Positions 26,238 through 64,000 of a stretch of DNA of 64,000 nt are shown here, one piece after another (the first letter of the stretch is position 1; each line of letters starts with the position of its first letter). The notes beneath the pieces are model-generated. The model did not search any database, was not told where the DNA came from, and was given only the letters and a program-made list of their open reading frames with translations. A program made the position numbers and the translations under genes. The stretch comes from Naegleria gruberi (Eukaryota), in assembly GCA_000004985.1 (NCBI GenBank), contig GG738906.1; one strand, 5' to 3'.

Positions 26238-27644
26238 TTATAAATGATAAATAAAATCAGAGAGAGGATTAATTAATGTAGATTCTTCATAAAATGAAAT
26301 GGAATTTGCTCGAAGTTTTGGGTTGATTGTAAAAAGGGAAAAGCATTTGGAAAGATTATATTCCAGTTCCTTATTGGTTTTTACAATATCACTCTTTCCA
26401 ATACCTATAGAAAAGTTAAAACCATGACATTTCTTACTTGTAATTCTTTTTAAAAATTGTTCTAAATTATCAAATATTACTCTGTCATTAAACGTAATAC
26501 CACTATTATTTGATCTATCGTTAGAGGTTATTGGAACAGAAAGTATTCCCAAATCATATCTATTGGTTATTTTTAATATATCTACATGGAGTGAATATGG
26601 TGATGAATTTAGTATTAGTTTTTCTAATTCATAGAGAAGGTGGTGAGATATGGAAAATCTAGTCTTGTCCTTTTCAATAAATGATGAAATAATATTTAGA
26701 TCTGAAAGTAGTATATTTTGCAAAATGTATTGTGCAAATATATCCAAATTGATAATATCTTGATTTTCTTCATAAGGATTAGAATTCATAAGAAAATTGG
26801 AATTATTATTTAAATATTCACAACAATCGATAACTTGTTTTACACCGAGTAGGTAGGAAGGATTTCTTTTCAAATTTTGGTCATCCAATCTGATAAATCC
26901 CTGTCTTTGATGTAAATCTAGAATTTTTTCATTTTCTGAACTCCATACGGGAAGAATGCTTGAACGATTCATTCCCATTATTGACAATGTTACAATATTC
27001 GCAATATTATTTTCAGAGCCATTATTATCATTTGAAAAATTCCAAGATGATTGATTCTTTGCGTGAATATATGAAACATGAGCTTTCTTTACAATATTAT
27101 ACAAATCTTCAGTTTCCATAAATGAAAAATCAACAATAAATACATATTTTTCTACAGACGACAATCTAGTCTTATATGAAGCTGCCAATAAATCTTCTAA
27201 TTGTAATGTCAATGAGTGAGCTGGCTGAGGTTTTTTTTGGAAGGATATCGAGGAAGGAGAAGTAGCATTTCTAGGAGATGAATCTGTTGTTCTACTTCTT
27301 GGTGATGTAGAAGAAGAAGTTGAAACTCCAGATGGAAGGGGAACAAGATTTATACTAGTATTCTGTTGGGAATTTACGGTGGTAGAATTTCCAAGAATGT
27401 GCCGCTTGAAAGAGAGTCTCCTTGGTTTTGTATCAACAGTTTGTTGTTGTTGATCAGTTGATACTGTAGGTTCCGAATTGTTTGTTTGTTTAATTTCAAA
27501 ACTAGCATCATACTTGGTGGATGTATTTTCTTCCGAAATGATTGTGGTGTTGGTAGGGTTGATTACAAATCCTCCTGATGGTGGTTGACCAATATGAGGA
27601 TTGTCTAAGTGTTTGGAAGATTTTCTCTTGAAGAGCGATTTCAT
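26238..27644 (-). CDS. Hypothetical protein, 468 aa, single exon. Ser/Thr-rich N-terminal third, then a globular region.
   Basis: Long ORF with the window-typical codon usage. No motif I can name with confidence. Confidence 0.5.
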   Translation of the reverse strand: MKSLFKRKSSKHLDNPHIGQPPSGGFVINPTNTTIISEENTSTKYDASFEIKQTNNSEPTVSTDQQQQTVDTKPRRLSFKRHILGNSTTVNSQQNTSINLVPLPSGVSTSSSTSPRSRTTDSSPRNATSPSSISFQKKPQPAHSLTLQLEDLLAASYKTRLSSVEKYVFIVDFSFMETEDLYNIVKKAHVSYIHAKNQSSWNFSNDNNGSENNIANIVTLSIMGMNRSSILPVWSSENEKILDLHQRQGFIRLDDQNLKRNPSYLLGVKQVIDCCEYLNNNSNFLMNSNPYEENQDIINLDIFAQYILQNILLSDLNIISSFIEKDKTRFSISHHLLYELEKLILNSSPYSLHVDILKITNRYDLGILSVPITSNDRSNNSGITFNDRVIFDNLEQFLKRITSKKCHGFNFSIGIGKSDIVKTNKELEYNLSKCFSLFTINPKLRANSISFYEESTLINPLSDFIYHL

Positions 27645-27748: not shown

Positions 27749-30608
27749 CTAAACATGTGGTGATAAACTAATAGCATTCCAACCATATGGACTCTTTACA
27801 GGGCTATCTTCCAAACTTCCAGAGCCAACAGACATTCCCAAAATGCTACTATTATTTCTTCCACAGCTTCCTCCTGATTCTCTCCTTTTCTTAATATTAA
27901 TAGCTTTTGGAGGAGATCTTCCTCGTTGACCAATCATCATACCTGGATGAGAACCTTCATAGTATTCATCATCATCCAATTCAAATTGTTCCTCATCCCC
28001 ACTATCCAGGCTGCTATCATCATTATATTCTTCCTGTTCGTCTTCTGAGAGATCGAAAATTCCATTATCATCATCCATCATTTCATCCTCGTCATAAGAT
28101 TCTGGTCTTTTTTTCATCATGGCATGTAGTGGAGATTTTGATTGAGGAGAGTGTAGAGATTCAAAGAGAAAATTGTTTGCCTCCGAATTTCTGTGGTTAT
28201 TGGTTTTTGACATATTCCTCAATCTGTCCCATTCGTCCATCATACCAGAATTACCAGCAGATCCACAATAGAAATCTTGTCTTTGTGAATTGGAAGAAAA
28301 TTGTGAGTTAGTTCCAAAATCACTCGAATCATACCCAGTTGTTGGATTGATATTTGGATATTCCCATTTTTGATAGATTGGCAAAATATATTTTTCAGAT
28401 TTTCTTAACAAATATGGATCGAATGGGAAAAAGTTATTCTCAAGATAATTCACACCTCCATATCCACCACGAAGAGGAACAACAATGTTTTGGTTTTCCT
28501 CCAGAACATGATGGAAATCAAAGAGGTAGAAACGAGAAAAGGCATTAACAACTTCTTCAGCAACATCAGAAGCTACAATCTGTTGAAATGCACAATAGGT
28601 TTTGTTTGGAAATAATTTTCGTGTTGGGTAGGGAGAATGACATGTTGGAACCATTTGATTAACCAATCATTAACCAATTGGTACAGTCATTTGCAATACC
28701 GCAATTGGTTTATTCGAAGCAAGACACATCAAATCATTATGGTCGTAATGTTTGAATGTGATCGTGTAATAATAATATGTTTGACAAGAATTATTCACAA
28801 ATAAAAGCAATACCACCAATGGCGTTCGGTTGTTCATTGCATTCGTGAAAATTAATGTCAATTAAAAATTGATACAATAAATTTGAATTGTAACAATGTT
28901 AAATCCATTCCATTTAAAATTATTTTGAATTTAAGATAAAGTAAATCTTGGTTGGATAGATTGTCATACTTACCTTAAGAGGATTAAATTTAGAATAAAT
29001 AATACGTTTGATAGGACTTTGGGAGAAAAATTGTCTACCTTCTGCCATTAGTTGTTTGACATCCTTTCTAATAGGTGAGGTTTCACCTCCTTCCCCATCT
29101 TCTGGTTTGAGCAATTGTTGTATTTTGAAACATAACACATAGAAAACTCCTTGGCAAATAGAATAAAACAAACTATGAGTTTCTACATCTAAGTATTGTA
29201 AACTTTGCTCAAAAGTTATAATATACTTTTCTGACCAGGCTAATAATTGACCCAAAGTTCTTAAAACAATGGTATTAGTAACATATTTTGCTCTTGATAA
29301 AAGACCGGATAAATAAGCAGCACAACATTTTCTAACCTCAACATGAAGTTGACTGTTGAATATATTTCCAAGTAAAAAACTGATAAATCTTTCCATATAA
29401 TTAACGTGAAAACTGCAAACGTAAAACATTAAAAATTGAATAGAGTGAAGTTGATATTGGTTAAGTACAAAGCTTCTGAATAAAACCATCATGGAGTGGA
29501 ATATGGAATCAAGAAATTCATTTTTTCCCTTAATTTCGCTATTGCCACTTTCTAGATACTTGTTATTTTGTCTTGGTGGATGTAAATGTACAGGAGAAGA
29601 AGGTGGAGCATTGGCACGTTCATTGATATATTCAAATAGAATGGTAACAATGGAATCAAGTTTTTCAGCACAGTAAATACGCATCTCTTCAGCATTGGAT
29701 TCATCAAATTCAAAATCAAATACAGCGTTTTCTAGATGTTTAACATCTGATGCTTCATTATTCATATTTCCAATATGCTTATTGGTTTGTGATGAGAAGG
29801 TATCATTTTGTGAATTCATTGCAACAAGTTGGGCATCCATTTCAATTAGACTTTGTACAACCGAGGAGAAACAGAAGCTAGTAAGTGAGGGAATATATCT
29901 ATCCAAACTTAAAGCATTATCAACAAATGCTCTATGAATTGAAAGTGAGTGTGAGGCATGAGGATAAACCTGTCTAATTCTATCTTTAAGTTGAGTAATG
30001 AACAAGTGTTGGTTGGTAGCTTTTTTTTGTATTTTGTAGAGGAGATTATGTACATTTTGTTTTCTTGTTCTTTCGAGCGTTTCTATGAGTTCTGCTGTTA
30101 ATTTTAATCCACCATTATTTTCTTCAATTCTCTTCAGCTCGAAATCTGGTATCGGAAGGAAATGTTCAACAAGGCAGGAAATTATCATTTCGTGAATACT
30201 TGTAGCAGTAGTATTGTTATTTGTTGTTGTTATGAGAGTACTATTAGTAGACGAAGATGTGGTATAAAGAGCCAAACACAATGTATCGAAACTAATTTGT
30301 AAATCCTTGTTATTAGAACACATTACTTTTGTGCTAGTGGAGAGGATGGCATGAATTAAATCTTTACAATTTGAATATTGACTATTATTGAGGGATCTTG
30401 AATGTACAATTTCGTTGGTTATCCTTGAGAGTGCTTTGAAAGTGAGTACAAGTTGGAGAGGACTGAGTTGATGGAATTTTTGTACGACACTCACATATTT
30501 TCGTGGATCATTATTTTCAAATAACTCTCGTAGCGCTGTTGAAAAAGCTTGTTTAATTACATTAATTTGTTGTTCTTGTTGGAGTTGTTGTGGATTTTGT
30601 TGCATCAT
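27749..30608 (-). CDS. RRN3: RNA polymerase I transcription initiation factor RRN3/TIF-IA. Exons 28974..30608 and 27749..28579, with an unusually long 394-nt intron (28580..28973, GTAAGT...CAACAG).
   Basis: ORF 28920..30608 aligns by eye to RRN3 (YLSGLLSRAKYV~YIGSFLARAKFI, FYSICQGVFYVLCFKIQQLL~FYSACQAVFYTFVFRHKQLL, FNPLKV~LNPLKI). ORF 27749..28666 carries the RRN3 C-terminal block (VVNAFSRFYLF..., FFPFDPYLLRKSEKYILPIYQKWE~FFPFDPCVLKRSKKFIDPIYQVWE). A GTAAGT donor sits immediately after NPLK. The only in-frame AG that gives the conserved continuation NPLK|IVASD...VVNAF is caacag| at 28580/28581. Confidence 0.75.
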
Positions 30609-34340: not shown

Positions 34341-34549
34341 TTTTTATTGTTTATTATTAGATTGATTTTTGTTCATTCCAGAAACTGATGGATGCGTTAT
34401 TTTAAAATTTAAAAAAAAAATCCCTTCTGTTTATTCAGGTTGAACAATAAAAAACTCTCTCCGAATTGACTCGAATGGACAAACAATAACATTGTAACAA
34501 TTCCAAATTATATCACATTCAACACATATGAAAATTTTTAATATTCATC

Positions 34550-36769
34550 ATGGCACGGTTACCAAACACTCCGATCATTGTTGATGAATTTAAATACATT
34601 CCCGGATGTTTCATTTATCTATTAACCCATCTTCATACGGATCACACTGGTGGTCTTACTCCAAGTTGGAATAATGGAATAATATTTTGTAGTGAAATAA
34701 CCAAAAGATTACTCTTGAAAAAGTTTCAATTACAAGAACCAGAGAGAATAATTGCTTTAGAGGAGGGACCAACCTATTACATTCCTCTTGTACCACCCAG
34801 TCCAATGCAGGATCACACAGACACGAATTTAAATATTCATCATGATGTTAATATTTGGAGGGATCCATCCTATTGGGTCAAGTTTAACAATAATCCTTCT
34901 TCCTCTCAAAACAATAGCAGTAACTTGTCACAATCAATGTCAGTTGGTATGAATCAAGCCTTGACTGTTTATGATAAGGATACATCTTATATGCAAGTCA
35001 ATATCATTGATGCTAATCACTGTCCAGGAAGTATTATGTTTTTATTGGAAGGCTATTTTGGAAATGTTTTATTTACAGGAGATTTCAGATATGATGCAAG
35101 AATTCTGCAAGCTCCTTGCTTTAGAGACAAGAAAATTGACCACCTCTACCTTGATGACACATTTCTGGATAAAATGTATGATTTTCCAACGAGACAAGAG
35201 GCTGGTAAACAAGTAATAAGTGTTATCAAGTCACTACCAGATACAACTCATATTCTGATTGCGGTTGACCATTTGGGTAAAGAGGAGTTAATGTTGGCTT
35301 TAGCAACTACTTTTCAAACTTTAATAGTTGTGCCCGAAGAAAGATATGAACTATTAGAATGTATGAATGATATTATCCCAATAGATTTATTTACCTGTGA
35401 TCCTAAACAAGGTAGAATTTTTGTAAAATCAAAGAAGGAAGTCAATATGCGGTCAATAATTGAGCACAAAAGAATTTTTGGAGCAACTACTGTTGGTATT
35501 ATTCCATCTGGATGGTCTTCTGCCCAACTCAAAGATCCAACCTCACAATTAATTTATAGAGTACCCTACTCACTCCATTCATCCTATTCGGAAATAATAG
35601 AATTTGTATCCACATTGAAGCCAAAAAATGTGTACAGTACTTCAAAAGATGAAAATTTAGAATTGAGAGATCAAGTTGGAAAATATTGTGATTATAATAC
35701 ACCCCTAAAACCTGTAATTGTTCCACGTTCTGTACTCTCACACATGGAAAGGTCATCCAATATGATTGATCATAAGAAAATTACAAGTGTTTCAAATATT
35801 TCCCCATCATCATCAATAACTAAAGTGTACAGAAAAAGAAAATCATACCCTCCTTCCCATAAGAAGTTTCTAAAAATTATTCCCCAAAATACACAAACCC
35901 AAAATACCAGTATTATTGACCTAACAGACACTGTGAATACATCCCAAATCAATTTAGAAGATACCCAAGATTTACTCTCCCATATGTACAATAGATCAGA
36001 AACAAGCTTTTCATTGCCATCCACCCCAAATAAGAAGAAGGAGTCCCAAAGAATTGTGGGATCATTAGAAGTTTTAGATGTTTTGGACAATTTTGTAAAT
36101 ATTTCTCCTATACCTAGTCCAAAAATTATTAAGCATTCCCCTCACAGAAAACAACTTGCCTCTAAACATTCAATAGAGCAAGTGTTGGTGGACAATAATG
36201 GAATACCAATTCTGGTACCAAAAGATACAAACTTGGAATCTGATGAAATATATAACTTATCACTTTCTCCCCACAGTGGGGATGAAAATGCTTTTGATGA
36301 AAGTGAGATTTTGAATAATATTGATTTAGAACAATCACCAGAGGAAAGTATTATTATTAAAACTGCTAACAATCAGCAGTTGCCATCAAAGAAAAGAAAG
36401 CATGTTGAAACAAGACAAATTTTAGAATTAAGCGATGATGACGAAATAGTACTCAAACCAGCAACCAACAAGACAACATCTCATTATGAATCCAATACAA
36501 AAAAGTTGAAACTTGCGACAAATCTTTCACAGATAGAATTCTCACTAGAGGCTAATCCTGTTGTTGCTCAAGACGAAATTGACAAGAACGAGCCCTATCC
36601 ACAAGGTTACTCACAAATTTCTTGGGATGATTCAGATGAAGATGTAAAATTAATACCACACCAGAAAAACAAAACAAGCCAAACACTCCATAAAACTACA
36701 AAACCAACCAAACAATCCAGTTCCCTCAGTTTGACAGACATTTTCTTTCCTAAAGCGACAAGGCATTAA
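34550..36769 (+). CDS. SNM1/PSO2-family DNA interstrand cross-link repair nuclease (metallo-beta-lactamase + beta-CASP), 739 aa, single exon.
   Basis: MBL motif HLHTDHTGGL, a second His/Asp cluster ...IDANHCPGSIMFL..., and a beta-CASP region. Long Ser/Asn-rich C-terminal tail. Confidence 0.8.
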   Translation: MARLPNTPIIVDEFKYIPGCFIYLLTHLHTDHTGGLTPSWNNGIIFCSEITKRLLLKKFQLQEPERIIALEEGPTYYIPLVPPSPMQDHTDTNLNIHHDVNIWRDPSYWVKFNNNPSSSQNNSSNLSQSMSVGMNQALTVYDKDTSYMQVNIIDANHCPGSIMFLLEGYFGNVLFTGDFRYDARILQAPCFRDKKIDHLYLDDTFLDKMYDFPTRQEAGKQVISVIKSLPDTTHILIAVDHLGKEELMLALATTFQTLIVVPEERYELLECMNDIIPIDLFTCDPKQGRIFVKSKKEVNMRSIIEHKRIFGATTVGIIPSGWSSAQLKDPTSQLIYRVPYSLHSSYSEIIEFVSTLKPKNVYSTSKDENLELRDQVGKYCDYNTPLKPVIVPRSVLSHMERSSNMIDHKKITSVSNISPSSSITKVYRKRKSYPPSHKKFLKIIPQNTQTQNTSIIDLTDTVNTSQINLEDTQDLLSHMYNRSETSFSLPSTPNKKKESQRIVGSLEVLDVLDNFVNISPIPSPKIIKHSPHRKQLASKHSIEQVLVDNNGIPILVPKDTNLESDEIYNLSLSPHSGDENAFDESEILNNIDLEQSPEESIIIKTANNQQLPSKKRKHVETRQILELSDDDEIVLKPATNKTTSHYESNTKKLKLATNLSQIEFSLEANPVVAQDEIDKNEPYPQGYSQISWDDSDEDVKLIPHQKNKTSQTLHKTTKPTKQSSSLSLTDIFFPKATRH

Positions 36770-44603: not shown

Positions 44604-46897
44604 TTATTGAGATAAAGATCCTCTTACAATTTCTACCAAAGATGTCAATAATTGGAAAACAACAGTAGTTTGAGGATTGATTAAAATCTTAAACAGAGCA
44701 TTTCTTAAATTTTGGCTATCAGCTTGCTCATTATCTGAGGCAATGTCATTAACATCAACTACCTTATTAATAAGTTCCATTTGTTGTGCTAGGAAAGAAG
44801 AAATTAGAGGATGAGATTTGATAGGTTCTTCCATTAATTTTGCCAATAAGTCTAATACCTTCTTTTCATTCTCATCAATGACTTGTTCATTCTTAATAAG
44901 TTCACCCTTTTCGTAGAGTTGAGAAAACTTTCTACCCTGTGCATCTGTGTAGTGAGTTTCCCCTTCAATTTGTCCGTCAACCCAATATCCCTCAAGAGAT
45001 TCTTTACTGTCCAAAAGAACAAATCTTCCTCTCCCATCAAATTTACCTCTTTTCCAATAACCAACATATGTGTATCCAGATGATGAAAAAGTTCCATAAC
45101 CATCAGAGAAATCACCAAGCCATTCACCTTCATAAACATCACCATTAGGATAGGATTGTTTGCCAAAACCTTCTCTCTTATCATTGTTCCATTCCCCATC
45201 ATAATGGGACTGATTTGCAGCAAATTTCATTTTACCCCTTCCAGATTTGATTGAATTTATAAAGTGGCCTTCGTAGACATCTCCTGAGGCATATTTATAA
45301 ATACCTTTACCTGTTATGGAATCTTTTGAGAATTCACCTTCGTATTTGGATCCATCTGTAAACACCATCTTACCTGCTCCATCTCTCATATCATCAATAA
45401 AATAGCCTTCATATACACCTCCATCGTTGTACATTAAAATACCAAAACCGTGCTTTTGTCCATTTGTGTTTGTGTCACCTTTATAAAATGGTTGGTTGCA
45501 ATCCATATTAAGATTATCACCAAGTCCACTACCAATCGAAATATTATGTGGTAATGTGGCTATATCAATTGAACTTTCAGATTCAACCGATGTTATGGAA
45601 GACAGATTATTCTCTACTTCTAAAACCATCTTAACAGACACTTGCCTTTTGTGATACACTCGGCTTAATGTAGCAGTATTATTAACAACAGTAGGGGTTG
45701 TACTGGCACCAATACTATTCAAATCTTCATCCTCAGTTTGATCATTGCATGTTTGAGAGGTTGCTGTATTTTCATCATTTGTCTGAATGTCTGAAACACC
45801 ATCCTCAAATATTTGAGGAGCATTGACTATTAATGACTTGATGACGTTGGTTGCATTGGAAATATCTCTAATAGTTAGCATGGGATCTTGATCTTTCAGA
45901 TATAATATATTAGGTTGAATTACAATAGCAATATTTTCAGGACTCATTAAATTCTAAAATTCAAACAAATTGAAATAACAATAAATAAAATATTAACAAA
46001 CATTAATAATAAAATAAAAATTAGTTCAATATTTTTGAAATTATTACATACCACTTGTTGTTTTTTCGAAACAGTATTTAAAAATAGGCAAAGTTTTTTT
46101 AGCAGTACATAATTTGCTCTGGGCAAAAGACCACAAATTTGTTGTAATAATTGACATTTACGACTAGTTTCCAATTCCTCAAGTTCTGAAGGTGATAAAT
46201 TATTTGTATCATTATTTGATATTGAAGTGGTATTAATCATTTTTGAAGTTGCAAGAAATGATTCGTATAGTTTGTTTGTTAATAGTGGTTCTCTCAGTTT
46301 CCTCAAATAAACCTTAATGAGAGAGGCTGCTAAATGTACATCTGCATATTCATTAAAATCAACTGTAGCCATTTTAGCTCCACCACTTTTAAATAATTCA
46401 TCAATTTCTTTCATTACCTTTTCTTCTCTACTCTTCGATGTAGAATGTCTGAAAATACCTTGAGTTTCCAAGCCATGTTTCTCCAAATAGTCCATGGCAT
46501 GAAATAGGAATTGGGGAATGTGTTCAGGTGAATTGGAAGGAAATTCATGGCCCCAAATGGTATCCTGATTCAAAATTTTAGAAAGTCCACCATTGATACC
46601 AGTACTACTACTACCCTTTGAATTTTCACCACCATTCAATATTTGTGATGATGAGGATGTTGAAGAGGAACGAGTGGAATTCTTTTTTCTTTTACTTCTT
46701 GTGGTGGTGGTGGAACCGTTATTATTACTACTACATGAGGATTCATCATCATCATGTTGCTGCTGTTGCTTGTCATGTTCATTAATCATTCCTTGTAACT
46801 GATCGTAGAGTGCAGTGGATTTTTGACCGTCAGTGTTTTTGAAGAGTGCCACAGATGCTCTGGGCTCTAATTTGATACGGGAAAATAGTCTTCTCAT
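44604..46897 (-). CDS. RhoGAP-domain protein fused to C-terminal MORN repeats (about 730 aa). Exons 46052..46897 and 44604..45953; 98-nt intron 45954..46051 (GTATGT...TTTTAG).
   Basis: ORF 45947..46897 carries a RhoGAP domain (…GIFRHSTSKSREEKVMKEIDE…, LLPRANYVLLKKLCLFLNTVSKK) and ends in intron read-through. A GTATGT donor follows KQQV. The acceptor ttttag|AATTTAATG continues as NLMSPENIAIVIQPNIL (RhoGAP motif N.M...NLA.VFGP.LL) into ORF 44604..45947, which holds at least 7 MORN repeats (YEGYFIDDMRDGAGKMVFTDGSKYEGEF...). Confidence 0.7.
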
Positions 46898-62464: not shown

Positions 62465-62496
62465 TTTTTTAAAGTATTTTTAGGTAACTTCAAGAG

Positions 62497-62527
62497 GAAT
62501 CCCGCCAATTTTAACAACCGCGCCATA
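62497..62527. promoter_or_regulatory. Two E2F-like GC-rich elements (aaTCCCGCCaat at 62498..62509 and aaCCGCGCCat at 62516..62526) plus an overlapping CCAAT in the 87-nt divergent spacer between the RhoGEF and MCM2 start codons.
   Basis: TCCCGCC/GGCGGGA and CCGCGCC/GGCGCGG match the E2F core TTTSSCGC. These are the only CG-containing stretches in this spacer. Confidence 0.35.
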
Positions 62528-62551
62528 AATTTAAAAAAAATAAACCAAAAA

Positions 62552-64000
62552 ATGAATCCGCCAGAAGATGTTGAAACACAAGAGTACGAAGAGGAAATTC
62601 CATTTGATGAAGAGGAGGAGGAAGGTGAAGATTTATTTGCGGATGACGTATTAGAGGAGGACTATACAAAAGGACCAACAGAAGAAGACTTTTATGATGA
62701 GCAATATATTGACAATACTACATACCATCCTATGAGCTATCATGATCGTTTGAACGTTGAAAATTTAATGAATTCTAGAGATGAAGAAGAAGAGGATGAA
62801 ATAGATCAAGCCATTAGACGGAGTGAAAACAAACGTAAGAGTTTGCCTTCTTCCGATGATGCAATTCTACATTTATTGGGAGATGACAATACAGATGAAT
62901 CTCATTCCTTTGAAGAGGACGAAGAAGATGATGGACAAACTTCGTTTGATGAGATTTTTACAGGTGACATTAGAGAAAAAATTGCTATGGAGAGAACAAG
63001 AGCTCTCATATTAAAGGGTTTTAGAAGGTTTTTCACAGAGGAAAAAAGAGAAGTTTATATGGAAGCCATCAAACATGCTGTAGCTAATAATAAGAAATCG
63101 ATAGTTGTCAATTTCACTGATCTTTCAGTTGCTCCTCATCTACTTTTATTATTGACAGATTTACCTGATGCTACCATTGAATTAATGGAAGAAGCTGTAA
63201 ATAGAATTGTAGAATTACAATATCCGAATTATGTGGGAGATGATTTTCATATCAGAATCAAAAACTTGCCAACTGTGGAATCAATTCGTGATTTGAGACA
63301 TTCCAGTTTAAATCAGTTGATATCTGTAAGAGGAGTAGTGACAAGAAGAACTGCCATGTTTCCTCAACTTAAATTTGTAAAGTATGATTGTGTTAAATGT
63401 GGAGAAAGCTTGAGTCCAATAATAGTGAGAAATGCATCAGATGTTTCTAAACCTTCTAGCTGTCCTGGTTGTGCTGGAAAAAACTGTTTCATTATTAATG
63501 AAGCTAAAACTATTTATTCTAATTACCAAAAGATAACAATTCAAGAGCCTCCTGGAACAGTTCCAGCAGGTAGAATACCAAGATCCAAAGATGTGATTCT
63601 TGTTGATGACTTGATTGATTGCACCAGACCTGGAGAGGAAGTTATTGTCACAGGAGTTTATAAACAAAATTATGATGCATTCCTCAATGTGAAACAAGGA
63701 TTCCCAGTGTTTGCCACAATAATAGAAGCCAACTATGTGGAGAAAATATTCGACAAACGAAGTGAAGCCATCACCAAAGAAGATGAAAGAAAGATTCAAC
63801 AATTAGCAAAAAATCCACATATTCAGGAAAAGATTATCAAATCAATAGCACCTTCAATTTTTGGACATGAAGATATTAAGAAGGGTATAGCTTTATCTTT
63901 ATTTGGAGGTGTAAGAAGAGTATCTGAAGAACATACTACAAGAGGTGATATCAATGTTTTACTATTAGGTGATCCAGGTACAGCAAAATCTCAAATCCTT
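62552..64000 (+). CDS. MCM2: DNA replication licensing factor MCM2, N-terminal about 483 aa; 3'-truncated by the window edge. No intron within the window.
   Basis: Acidic histone-binding-type N-terminus, the RRF-type motif ...ILKGFRRFF..., a C4 zinc finger (CVKCG...CPGCAG) and OB-fold region. The MCM box begins with ...GDINVLLLGDPGTAKSQIL (Walker A) at the window edge. The ATG at 62552 follows an A-rich leader. The frame is open to position 64000. Confidence 0.85.
   Translation, partial: MNPPEDVETQEYEEEIPFDEEEEEGEDLFADDVLEEDYTKGPTEEDFYDEQYIDNTTYHPMSYHDRLNVENLMNSRDEEEEDEIDQAIRRSENKRKSLPSSDDAILHLLGDDNTDESHSFEEDEEDDGQTSFDEIFTGDIREKIAMERTRALILKGFRRFFTEEKREVYMEAIKHAVANNKKSIVVNFTDLSVAPHLLLLLTDLPDATIELMEEAVNRIVELQYPNYVGDDFHIRIKNLPTVESIRDLRHSSLNQLISVRGVVTRRTAMFPQLKFVKYDCVKCGESLSPIIVRNASDVSKPSSCPGCAGKNCFIINEAKTIYSNYQKITIQEPPGTVPAGRIPRSKDVILVDDLIDCTRPGEEVIVTGVYKQNYDAFLNVKQGFPVFATIIEANYVEKIFDKRSEAITKEDERKIQQLAKNPHIQEKIIKSIAPSIFGHEDIKKGIALSLFGGVRRVSEEHTTRGDINVLLLGDPGTAKSQIL

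Follow-up and report, generated by a model that had tools for sequence, protein, structure and literature searches.

Some long introns of intron-poor eukaryotes are autoregulated, as in the yeast genes YRA1, DBP2 and RPL30, whose introns are bound by the RNA-binding protein that the gene itself encodes. Human introns with distant branch points have AG exclusion zones (AGEZs), of 149–291 nt in the examples given, HTR4 among them (Gooding et al., 2006, PMC1431707; PMC3239191). In yeast, the distant 3' splice sites of COF1 and UBC13 need secondary structure (PMC3239191), and larger introns of compact genomes can host U17 or other small nucleolar RNAs (snoRNAs), as in Fugu rpS7 and Xenopus rpS8 (PMC7601244). 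Here we compare with these systems the sole intron of the RRN3 gene of Naegleria gruberi, which lies in a stretch of 64,000 nt of contig GG738906.1 (assembly GCA_000004985.1), called the window in the following. RRN3 is an activator of ribosomal RNA synthesis and a growth-limiting initiation factor of RNA polymerase I (Pol I). The intron fits known kinds, namely AGEZ introns and introns with conserved RNA elements, and does not form a separate category. Its conservation across Heterolobosea, its complete AG exclusion and the unclassified RNA core that it contains nevertheless seem, as far as we could find, to be undescribed, and searches of the literature turned up no paper on the RRN3 intron.

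The gene, NAEGRDRAFT_52953, lies on the minus strand. Its best protein matches are the RRN3 proteins (PF05327) of Naegleria lovaniensis (71–78% identity), Willaertia magna and Acrasis kona, and a Pfam search found the PF05327 domain on all homologues. It is built as follows:

28974..30608, minus strand: coding exon 1 of RRN3, 545 codons ending in NPLK, defined by the open reading frame (ORF) list, PF05327 on the homologues and identity to XP_002671366.1
28580..28973, minus strand: sole intron of RRN3, 394 nt, phase 0, GTAAGT...CAACAG, U2-type GT-AG
28968..28973, minus strand: 5' splice site GTAAGT, replaced by GTATGT in orthologues and by GTACGT in one
28670..28861, minus strand: intronic ORF of 63 codons (63 aa, TTG start), a non-coding chance ORF
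27749..28579, minus strand: coding exon 2, starting with IVASDVAEEV and including the stop codon

The 562-codon ORF 30608..28920 on the minus strand carries the RRN3 domain up to SKFNPLK, where exon 1 ends at 28974 (AAT CCT CTT AAG, NPLK) and GTAAGT adjoins at 28973. The conserved protein continuation IVASDVAEEVVNAF starts at 28579 (ATT GTA GCT TCT GAT, IVASD), directly after CAACAG. Joined, the two exons translate into 821 residues, every one of which is identical to XP_002671366.1/EFC38622.1 of N. gruberi NEG-M in an exact-sequence comparison; the intron is already in the public gene model and the protein annotation remains unchanged. The annotated proteins of N. lovaniensis, Willaertia and Acrasis read NPLK-[IV][VI]A.D without a gap and an intronless homologue (L007, assembly GCA_006365035.1) reads NPFK-VIPIDIVEEV contiguously in its genome, so no residues are missing at the junction. 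The original prediction, made from the letters of the window, had placed a 394-nt intron between this donor and the acceptor restoring IVASD, which is borne out by the sequence, the identity to XP_002671366.1, the orthologues and L007. It had also considered an additional micro-exon flanked by two short introns; such a GT-AG structure is impossible because no internal AG that could serve as acceptor occurs after intron nt 26. It was likewise correct that the ORF 28670..28861 lies inside the intron and that the first 29 codons of the ORF 27749..28666 are intronic ((28666-28579)/3 = 29). Orthologous introns resemble each other to the same degree in all six reading frames, with no frame-specific conservation, which rules out a conserved peptide in the intron. 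The donors GTAAGT in N. gruberi, GTATGT in N. lovaniensis and GTACGT in the N. lovaniensis/fowleri-like locus L014 (L014:3241-3246) indicate that position +4 of the 5' splice site is free to vary. The G+C content of the intron is 30%, that of the N. gruberi genome 33% (PMC8296547).

The most strongly conserved property of the RRN3 intron is the exclusion of AG. In N. gruberi the dinucleotide occurs only at intron nt 4, 26 and 393, leaving the following tract:

28582..28947, minus strand: AG-free tract of 366 nt, intron nt 27–392, 93% of the intron

The original prediction had recognized this tract and understated its length as about 330 nt. It is the longest AG/CT-free run on both strands of the window, the next ones measuring 226 and 173 nt, and at the CT frequency of the window about 3.5e-6 runs of 366 nt would be expected. 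Eight orthologous introns together contain 4 internal AGs instead of 116.5 expected (obs/exp 0.03; Poisson P ~2e-44), all 4 at intron nt 26 or before; the orthologues of the N. gruberi intron have no internal AG beyond nt 10, and four of them have none whatsoever. Since the second most depleted dinucleotide, CT, reaches an obs/exp of 0.64, the depletion is specific for AG and for the sense strand. Enriched are TG (obs/exp 1.88), CA (1.47) and AC (1.40); G makes up 13–16% of the sense strand in the orthologous introns and is nearly always preceded by T. Of the nine internal AGs in the window's 13 short introns, seven occur at nt 26 or before. A 98-nt intron at 45954-46051 on the minus strand (GTATGT...TTTTAG) is wholly AG-free, with its last branch-point-like YURAY motif 37 nt before the acceptor, and is a smaller instance of the same pattern of first AG and distant branch. 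The second-longest AG-free run of the window (34438-34664, plus strand, 226 nt), for which a uniform model expects about 0.02 occurrences, covers an intergenic region or 5' leader and the first ~30 codons of the plus-strand gene ATGGCACGGTTACC; neither this run nor the one at 62489-62662 on the minus strand is an intron.

How old is the intron? Homologous loci were fetched and the same codon boundary was located in each of them. At this boundary, NP[LF]K|[IV], an intron in phase 0 is present in four species of Naegleria (N. gruberi, N. lovaniensis, L014 and L003, the latter uncultured and of the same species as L015), in Willaertia, in Acrasis and in two acrasid-like metagenome contigs. The seven complete copies range from 272 to 395 nt: besides N. 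gruberi these are N. lovaniensis with 388 nt, L014 with 395 nt, L003 with 336 nt, Willaertia with 308 nt, Acrasis with 272 nt and the acrasid-like contig L005 with 372 nt. In the second acrasid-like contig, L006, the intron exceeds 195 nt and reaches the contig end. RRN3 has no further intron in N. lovaniensis, Willaertia and Acrasis either, because gene span minus coding sequence equals the length of this intron exactly (388, 308 and 272 nt). The other introns that can be defined in the window (n = 13) measure 38–61 nt, with one of 98 nt, as the original prediction had stated; its estimate that the RRN3 intron exceeds the local norm about eightfold holds within the window and is overstated for the genome as a whole, for which a mean intron length of 203 bp is published (PMC8296547). 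The RRN3 intron is therefore ancient and throughout its orthologues several times longer than neighboring introns. The check in relatives, which had been suggested with the original prediction, refutes one of its proposals, a recently inserted sequence, since a long intron is found at the same site across Heterolobosea. The RRN3 homologue of L007 shares 29% identity, has no intron at the site and is seemingly intronless, so that the intron is either specific to Heterolobosea or was lost in the L007 lineage. A metagenome scan with RRN3 peptide patterns gave 515 pattern matches, none of which was confirmed, and protein searches with exon 2 alone and with an exon-1 profile, limited by the index, revealed essentially no new homologues.

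Within the intron lies a conserved core. Four-fold degenerate sites of the adjacent, highly conserved exon are saturated, with identities of 0.14–0.55 in the species pairs compared, and intronic blocks are 80–100% identical over the same distances. In the closest pair, N. lovaniensis and L014, four-fold identity in the exon is 0.61 and the first ~115 nt of the intron are 0.53–0.77 identical, whereas a core of ~215 nt (nt ~120–335) is 0.90–1.00 identical; identity dips at nt ~331–350 and is 0.97 in the last 45 nt, the 3' splice-site region. A fine map of this pair places the start of the core at the base of a long hairpin and its end directly after AACACC, and conservation falls immediately past the ACA-containing tail. 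In N. gruberi the core comprises the following elements:

28616..28861, minus strand: conserved RNA core, intron nt 113–358, consisting of hairpin A, B block, CGAAUAAACC motif, hairpin C and ACA-containing tail, seen in a trio alignment and in the fine map of N. lovaniensis and L014
28781..28861, minus strand: hairpin A, ~81 nt, unique in the window, predicted by minimum free energy (MFE)
28807-28840, minus strand: apex of hairpin A, conserved in sequence (loop ACGCC) and structure
28720..28766, minus strand: B block, a local hairpin around AAACAUUACGACCAUAAU with one compensatory change of C-G to U-A, for which the alignment of L003 is unreliable
28702..28716, minus strand: CGAAUAAACCAAUUG motif, of which CGAAUAAA is invariant in the four Naegleria and Willaertia and holds AAUAAA
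28636..28691, minus strand: hairpin C, closed by AAUGAC/GUCAUU, closing stem conserved and interior variable
28616..28626, minus strand: ACA-containing tail CAACACGAAAA, 3' edge of the core, AACAC(C/A/G)A in all four Naegleria
Loop and single-strand motifs of the core: ACGCC; AAUAAACCAAUUG; in acrasids GUGAAAACAUUUGAC

Blocks of 19–34 nt are conserved in Naegleria, and its species have three blocks in common, GCGAUUAACCAUCGNACGCCUUCGGUGGAAUCGC, AAACAUYAYGACCAURAU and CGAAUAAAYC, the last of which is also found in Willaertia; the intronic AAUAAA lies at 28706-28711. In acrasids a 29-nt block, ACCAYRAUGUGUGAAAACAUUYGACUGGU, is identical in L005 and L006 and matches at 26 of 29 positions in Acrasis. 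These comparisons show that the core (~215–245 nt) is under stronger purifying selection than synonymous sites. Between the clades the picture is different: nhmmer found no significant match between the Naegleria core and the acrasid block, whichever of the two served as query (E values no better than 9.6 and 2.4). Heterolobosea as a whole share the position, the length and the AG exclusion, as judged from the sequences, whereas the interior can be shown to be conserved only inside each clade. In both clades a hairpin is closed by ACCA.../...UGGU with an asymmetric internal loop, a common feature that we regard as a lead only. A covariance model of the ACCAUGA...UGGU hairpin was abandoned, as MAFFT aligned L003 and Willaertia out of register. 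The core is neither a repeat nor present in a second copy in the window, where three conserved motifs are unique save for matches at chance level, one of them at 1221-1235, antisense to a coding ORF. A metagenome scan with the hairpin-A motif gave four matches, all in GC-rich bacterial coding sequence and attributable to chance.

The N. gruberi intron folds better than shuffled sequences (z = -3.3), forming hairpins A, B and C in the MFE structure, and the introns of N. lovaniensis and Willaertia do so with z = -1.8 each. In the four Naegleria the apex of hairpin A comprises 14 pairs; 94.6% of cells are paired, compensatory double changes affect three of the pairs, and G-U pairs occur on the sense strand. 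The whole predicted structure has nine pairs with double changes as compared to 2.9 ± 1.3 in shuffles (0 of 500) and at most 4 in slid controls, a count that comes from four sequences and from a structure derived from the same alignment. As, in addition, the row of L003 is out of register in the columns of hairpin B, only hairpin A is to be considered solid. Its compensatory changes and sense-strand G-U pairs show that the core is an RNA-level element of the sense strand. Together with the purifying selection on the blocks, this hairpin supports the notion of the original prediction that the outlier length signals hosted content. A bridging structure of the whole intron is rejected as a common property, the introns of Acrasis, L005 and L003 being no better folded than shuffles. 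Alternative pairings are conceivable within the core. ACCAUGA could pair either locally in hairpin B or with UUGUGGU directly after CGAAUAAACCAU, and ACCAUAA in the B block alternatively with UUGCGGU (28698-28704). ATTAACCAAT occurs twice, 11 nt apart (28658-28678), forming the arms of hairpin C. Moreover, a 16-nt near-copy of the 3' strand of hairpin A (CCAAUUGCGGUAUUGC as compared to CCAUUGGUGGUAUUGC; 28693-28708 and 28807-28822) is found 114 nt downstream, immediately past the CGAAUAAACC motif, as a possible competitor for the 5' strand of hairpin A. A conformational switch in the core is possible but unproven.

Where the branch point lies bears on how the AG exclusion is to be understood. 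The two relevant regions of the N. gruberi intron are:

28894..28905, minus strand: GAUUUAACAUUG, first branch-point-like YURAY motif past the last internal AG, candidate distal branch point
28580..28612, minus strand: 3' splice-site region, UUUCCAAACAAA (conserved in N. gruberi, N. lovaniensis and L014) ... CAUUUCAACAG

Several orthologues have conserved YURAY motifs 25–75 nt from the 5' end. In all three acrasid sequences AACAYUAAYUYUU, with a T-rich run behind it, is found 25–45 nt from the donor, Willaertia has UACUAAC at intron nt 24–30, N. lovaniensis and L014 keep an island CU(A/G)AU amid drifting sequence, and the distal candidate of N. gruberi is UUUAAC at intron nt 71–76. The N. gruberi intron has no YURAY in its final 78 nt and the Willaertia intron none in its final 178 nt; the 3' end of the former offers UCCAAAC and UCAAC as weak candidates. 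If the branch point is distal, the AG exclusion zone would extend beyond the 149–291 nt of the human examples. Like the AGEZ introns, the RRN3 intron has a long AG-free tract up to the 3' splice site, consistent with selection of the first AG, and in several orthologues candidate branch points and pyrimidine-rich runs far upstream. It differs from them in that the zone takes up 366 of the 394 nt (93%) and, in four orthologues, the intron from end to end, in being conserved across a whole protist lineage, and in surrounding a conserved folded core, whereas the human zones are reported as unstructured.

How could such an intron be maintained? We propose that the first AG to clear a minimum spacing from the 5' splice site or the branch point is taken as the 3' splice site. 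AG exclusion would then be the footprint of this rule, which the short introns of the window would follow as well, and with a possibly distal branch point the RRN3 intron would be an AGEZ intron of record length. That AG is excluded over 270–390 nt, and kept so independently in lineages with saturated synonymous sites, would imply a strict first-AG rule. Under such a rule a long intron could persist only if every AG is purged, at a continuing selective cost, and its length would therefore be functional. The core might act in cis on the RRN3 pre-mRNA, as a folded domain between a 5' module and the only AG that binds a factor or switches its conformation, and so might set the efficiency of intron removal. 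Retention of the intron would lead to an in-frame stop 17 codons into the intron, and splicing efficiency could in this way tune the dosage of a growth-limiting Pol I initiation factor. We tentatively favor such a cis-acting control of RRN3 splicing, to which we give clearly less than even weight, the evidence being nearly balanced with that for a hosted RNA discussed below. In its favor are 1) the position in the sole intron of a dosage-critical regulator; 2) phylum-wide retention with a clade-specific interior; 3) the early stop; and 4) the alternative pairings. Similar to YRA1, DBP2 and RPL30, RRN3 would be a dosage-sensitive regulator with a single, unusually long retained intron, retention of which yields a premature stop, albeit the yeast introns are bound by their own products and the effector for RRN3 is only hypothetical.

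Several observations weigh against cis-acting control. The core lies at least 110 nt from the donor and at least 40 nt from the acceptor, unlike the positions of most splicing regulators, and its sharp boundaries, at the base of hairpin A and just past ACA, resemble the termini of a stable RNA that has been processed. Simple autoregulation would have no obvious effector because RRN3 is not a classical RNA-binding protein. Foldedness is not shared by all orthologues (z = -0.07 in L003, +0.18 in L005 and +2.4 in Acrasis), part of the covariation in hairpin B stems from the misaligned row of L003, and, homology of the cores across clades being statistically undetectable, we refrain from postulating a single element common to the phylum. 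There are proximal branch-point candidates as well: N. lovaniensis has CAUGAU at a distance of 14 nt from the AG, Acrasis has UUUGAU at 22 nt, and UCCAAAC is conserved in Naegleria. Finally, cis action, regulation and the position of the branch point are all what we infer from the letters of the introns.

Alternatively, the intron could host a stable, trans-acting non-coding RNA (ncRNA) of ~215–245 nt, either an orphan or divergent H/ACA-like snoRNA or a new class, that is released by exonucleolytic trimming of the excised intron. The intron would then be kept for expression of the RNA, and the lack of AG would be imposed by its location. We give this reading only slightly less weight than cis-acting control. 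As in known intron-hosted snoRNAs, an outlier-long intron of a gene that functions in ribosomal RNA synthesis contains a sharply bounded conserved core in otherwise drifting sequence: the boundaries fall at the base of hairpin A and at the ACA tail (AACAC(C/A/G)A in four Naegleria), and the 5' 115 nt and the spacer past the core drift. Three hairpins and conserved single-stranded motifs would suit such an RNA, and the hosting of U17 and other snoRNAs by larger introns of compact genomes provides a precedent. U17/snR30 in particular is a multi-hairpin RNA of at least 200 nt with a downstream ACA, and AAACCAU, its m2 element, is found on the 3' side of an internal loop by the basal helix exactly in N. 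lovaniensis and L014, and as AAACCAA within the CGAAUAAACCAAUUG motif of N. gruberi and in Willaertia; AAACCA(U/A), which also matches the H-box consensus ANANNA, is single-stranded in all four of these sequences.

The identity of such an RNA is the difficulty. Rfam at gathering thresholds reports no family in the whole window; at E ≤ 10 the region 28400-29150 gave, on both strands, chance matches only (ODC_IRES, SNORD77 across the exon junction, bxd_1), and at E ≤ 5 no intron of the six orthologous loci was matched. Known riboswitch classes, such as the TPP riboswitch of eukaryotic introns, have no Rfam match either, and a scan for tRNA and tmRNA found none. A box C/D snoRNA is excluded: of six complete introns examined, those of N. 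gruberi, Willaertia, Acrasis and L005 lack CUGA altogether, and no C box is conserved. The layout of three hairpins speaks clearly neither for nor against an H/ACA RNA: AAACCA agrees with ANANNA, a motif of low information, in four of five Naegleria and Willaertia sequences, the exception being L003, in which an H box is not alignable. All four Naegleria have an ACA where the core ends on its 3' side, although 4–11 nt separate it from the nearest stem. Hairpins B and C have no internal loop exceeding 3x3 nt and hence lack a pseudouridylation pocket, for which a large internal loop about 14–15 nt from the box would be expected; a canonical H/ACA reading of the core appears unconvincing from its predicted fold. 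An intron free of AG cannot contain AGA boxes of the euglenozoan type. U17/snR30 does not fit either, with m1 absent, m2 partial and the spacing of ACA wrong. The sole match to m1 (AUAUUCCUA) with at most two mismatches in Naegleria and Willaertia introns is AUAUUAUUA in N. gruberi, which is not conserved, and the scattered two-mismatch matches in Acrasis are mirrored neither in L005 nor in L006. The m2 element is altered to AAAUCC in L003 and absent in acrasids. The recognition element of U17/snR30 lies invariantly 7 nt upstream of ACA (PMC2664660), whereas the distance is 10 nt in N. lovaniensis, 11 nt in L014 and 9 nt in L003, and N. gruberi has GCA in place of ACA. Moreover, guide and box sequences of real snoRNAs are normally kept over such distances, and the cores of Naegleria and acrasids are unalignable. 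The original prediction had mentioned a snoRNA as possible content, which finds no support, and had seen no convincing set of C/D or H/ACA signatures, in line with the absence of C/D boxes and of a clear H/ACA set; the covariance search of both strands that it suggested yielded nothing above chance.

A further reading seems unlikely, according to which the intron is a lineage-wide RNA control device, strict scanning for the first AG proceeds from a 5'-proximal branch point over 250–350 nt and the core serves as a switch that gates the only AG or the invariant AAUAAA. Such a switch could resemble a riboswitch or respond to the binding of a growth-state factor, perhaps RRN3 itself, and would couple Pol I initiation capacity to the state of the cell; the AG exclusion zone would in this unlikely case be the longest described. 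Human RRN3 was reported to bind mRNAs and to steer alternative polyadenylation (PMC12638823). We consider it improbable that the hairpins are purely mechanical, compacting the stretch between a distal branch point and the AG for the second step of splicing with neither regulation nor RNA product. Precedents are COF1 and UBC13 of yeast (PMC3239191), which likewise have hairpins between the candidate branch point and the 3' splice site in an intron-poor genome, and splicing of which is possibly likewise sensitive to folding. The better-than-shuffled folding in N. gruberi, N. lovaniensis and Willaertia and the lack of YURAY near the 3' end in several orthologues would agree with it. However, the length of the intron would remain unexplained, as deletions should have accumulated since the heterolobosean ancestor, and conservation goes beyond pairing and includes loop and single-strand sequence (ACGCC, CGAAUAAA). 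Structure is not common to all orthologues, Acrasis and L005 being no more structured than shuffles, and yeast tolerates silent AGs hidden in such structures, whereas the RRN3 intron simply lacks them.

It is very improbable that the conserved blocks work as DNA, for example as a palindromic transcription-factor site, an intronic enhancer or a promoter. Imperfect palindromes are present (ACCA..AUGU/ACAU..UGGU in acrasids, CACAU...AUGUG in N. gruberi), but AG exclusion is strand-specific, the G-U pairs of the helix would be A-C on the other strand, and the changes are compensatory for RNA pairing. The absence of any function, with a long intron that merely persisted and conservation due to slow evolution or chance, is effectively refuted by the conserved blocks beside saturated four-fold sites, by the probability of the AG exclusion and by the retention of site and length in every heterolobosean orthologue found, even though a mean of 203 bp implies that long introns are not rare in the annotation of N. 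gruberi (PMC8296547).

If the first-AG rule holds, the RRN3 intron would be a natural experiment on the choice of the 3' splice site in a deep-branching eukaryote. The rule would also account for the shortness of most Naegleria introns (~40–60 nt), and it would provide a test for gene models in Heterolobosea, in that a long predicted intron with AGs would be suspect. To our knowledge, essentially no snoRNAs or regulatory RNAs have been described in this lineage. An unclassified, constrained RNA of ~215–245 nt in a gene that limits ribosomal RNA transcription would be either a new control point of ribosome production or a new ncRNA. As the core is also defined in a species similar to N. fowleri, it might be of interest for amoeba-specific RNA targets.

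The surroundings of the gene vary. In N. lovaniensis and L014, RRN3 is flanked by genes for a Na/sulphate symporter and a dual-specificity phosphatase, whereas the flanks in the N. gruberi window (26238-27644 and from 31068) look different, with a Ser/Asn-rich ORF of 468 aa on the downstream side and an ABC-transporter-like ORF on the upstream side; the intron is thus conserved where local synteny is not. Two independent assemblies of the metagenome run ERR1078381 (L008 and L013) are 100% identical to the window sequence. Both break at ~28841, 79 nt beyond the end of the read-through ORF and at the boundary between base and apex of hairpin A, and in L013 exon 1 is split into two ORFs (382 and 169 aa); the breaks reflect either an assembly error or a strain polymorphism. 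The N. fowleri protein CAG4714657.1 of the same 90% protein cluster has 1089 aa as compared to 882 aa in N. lovaniensis and is probably a fused or mis-modelled gene, for which the long RRN3 intron is possibly the cause.

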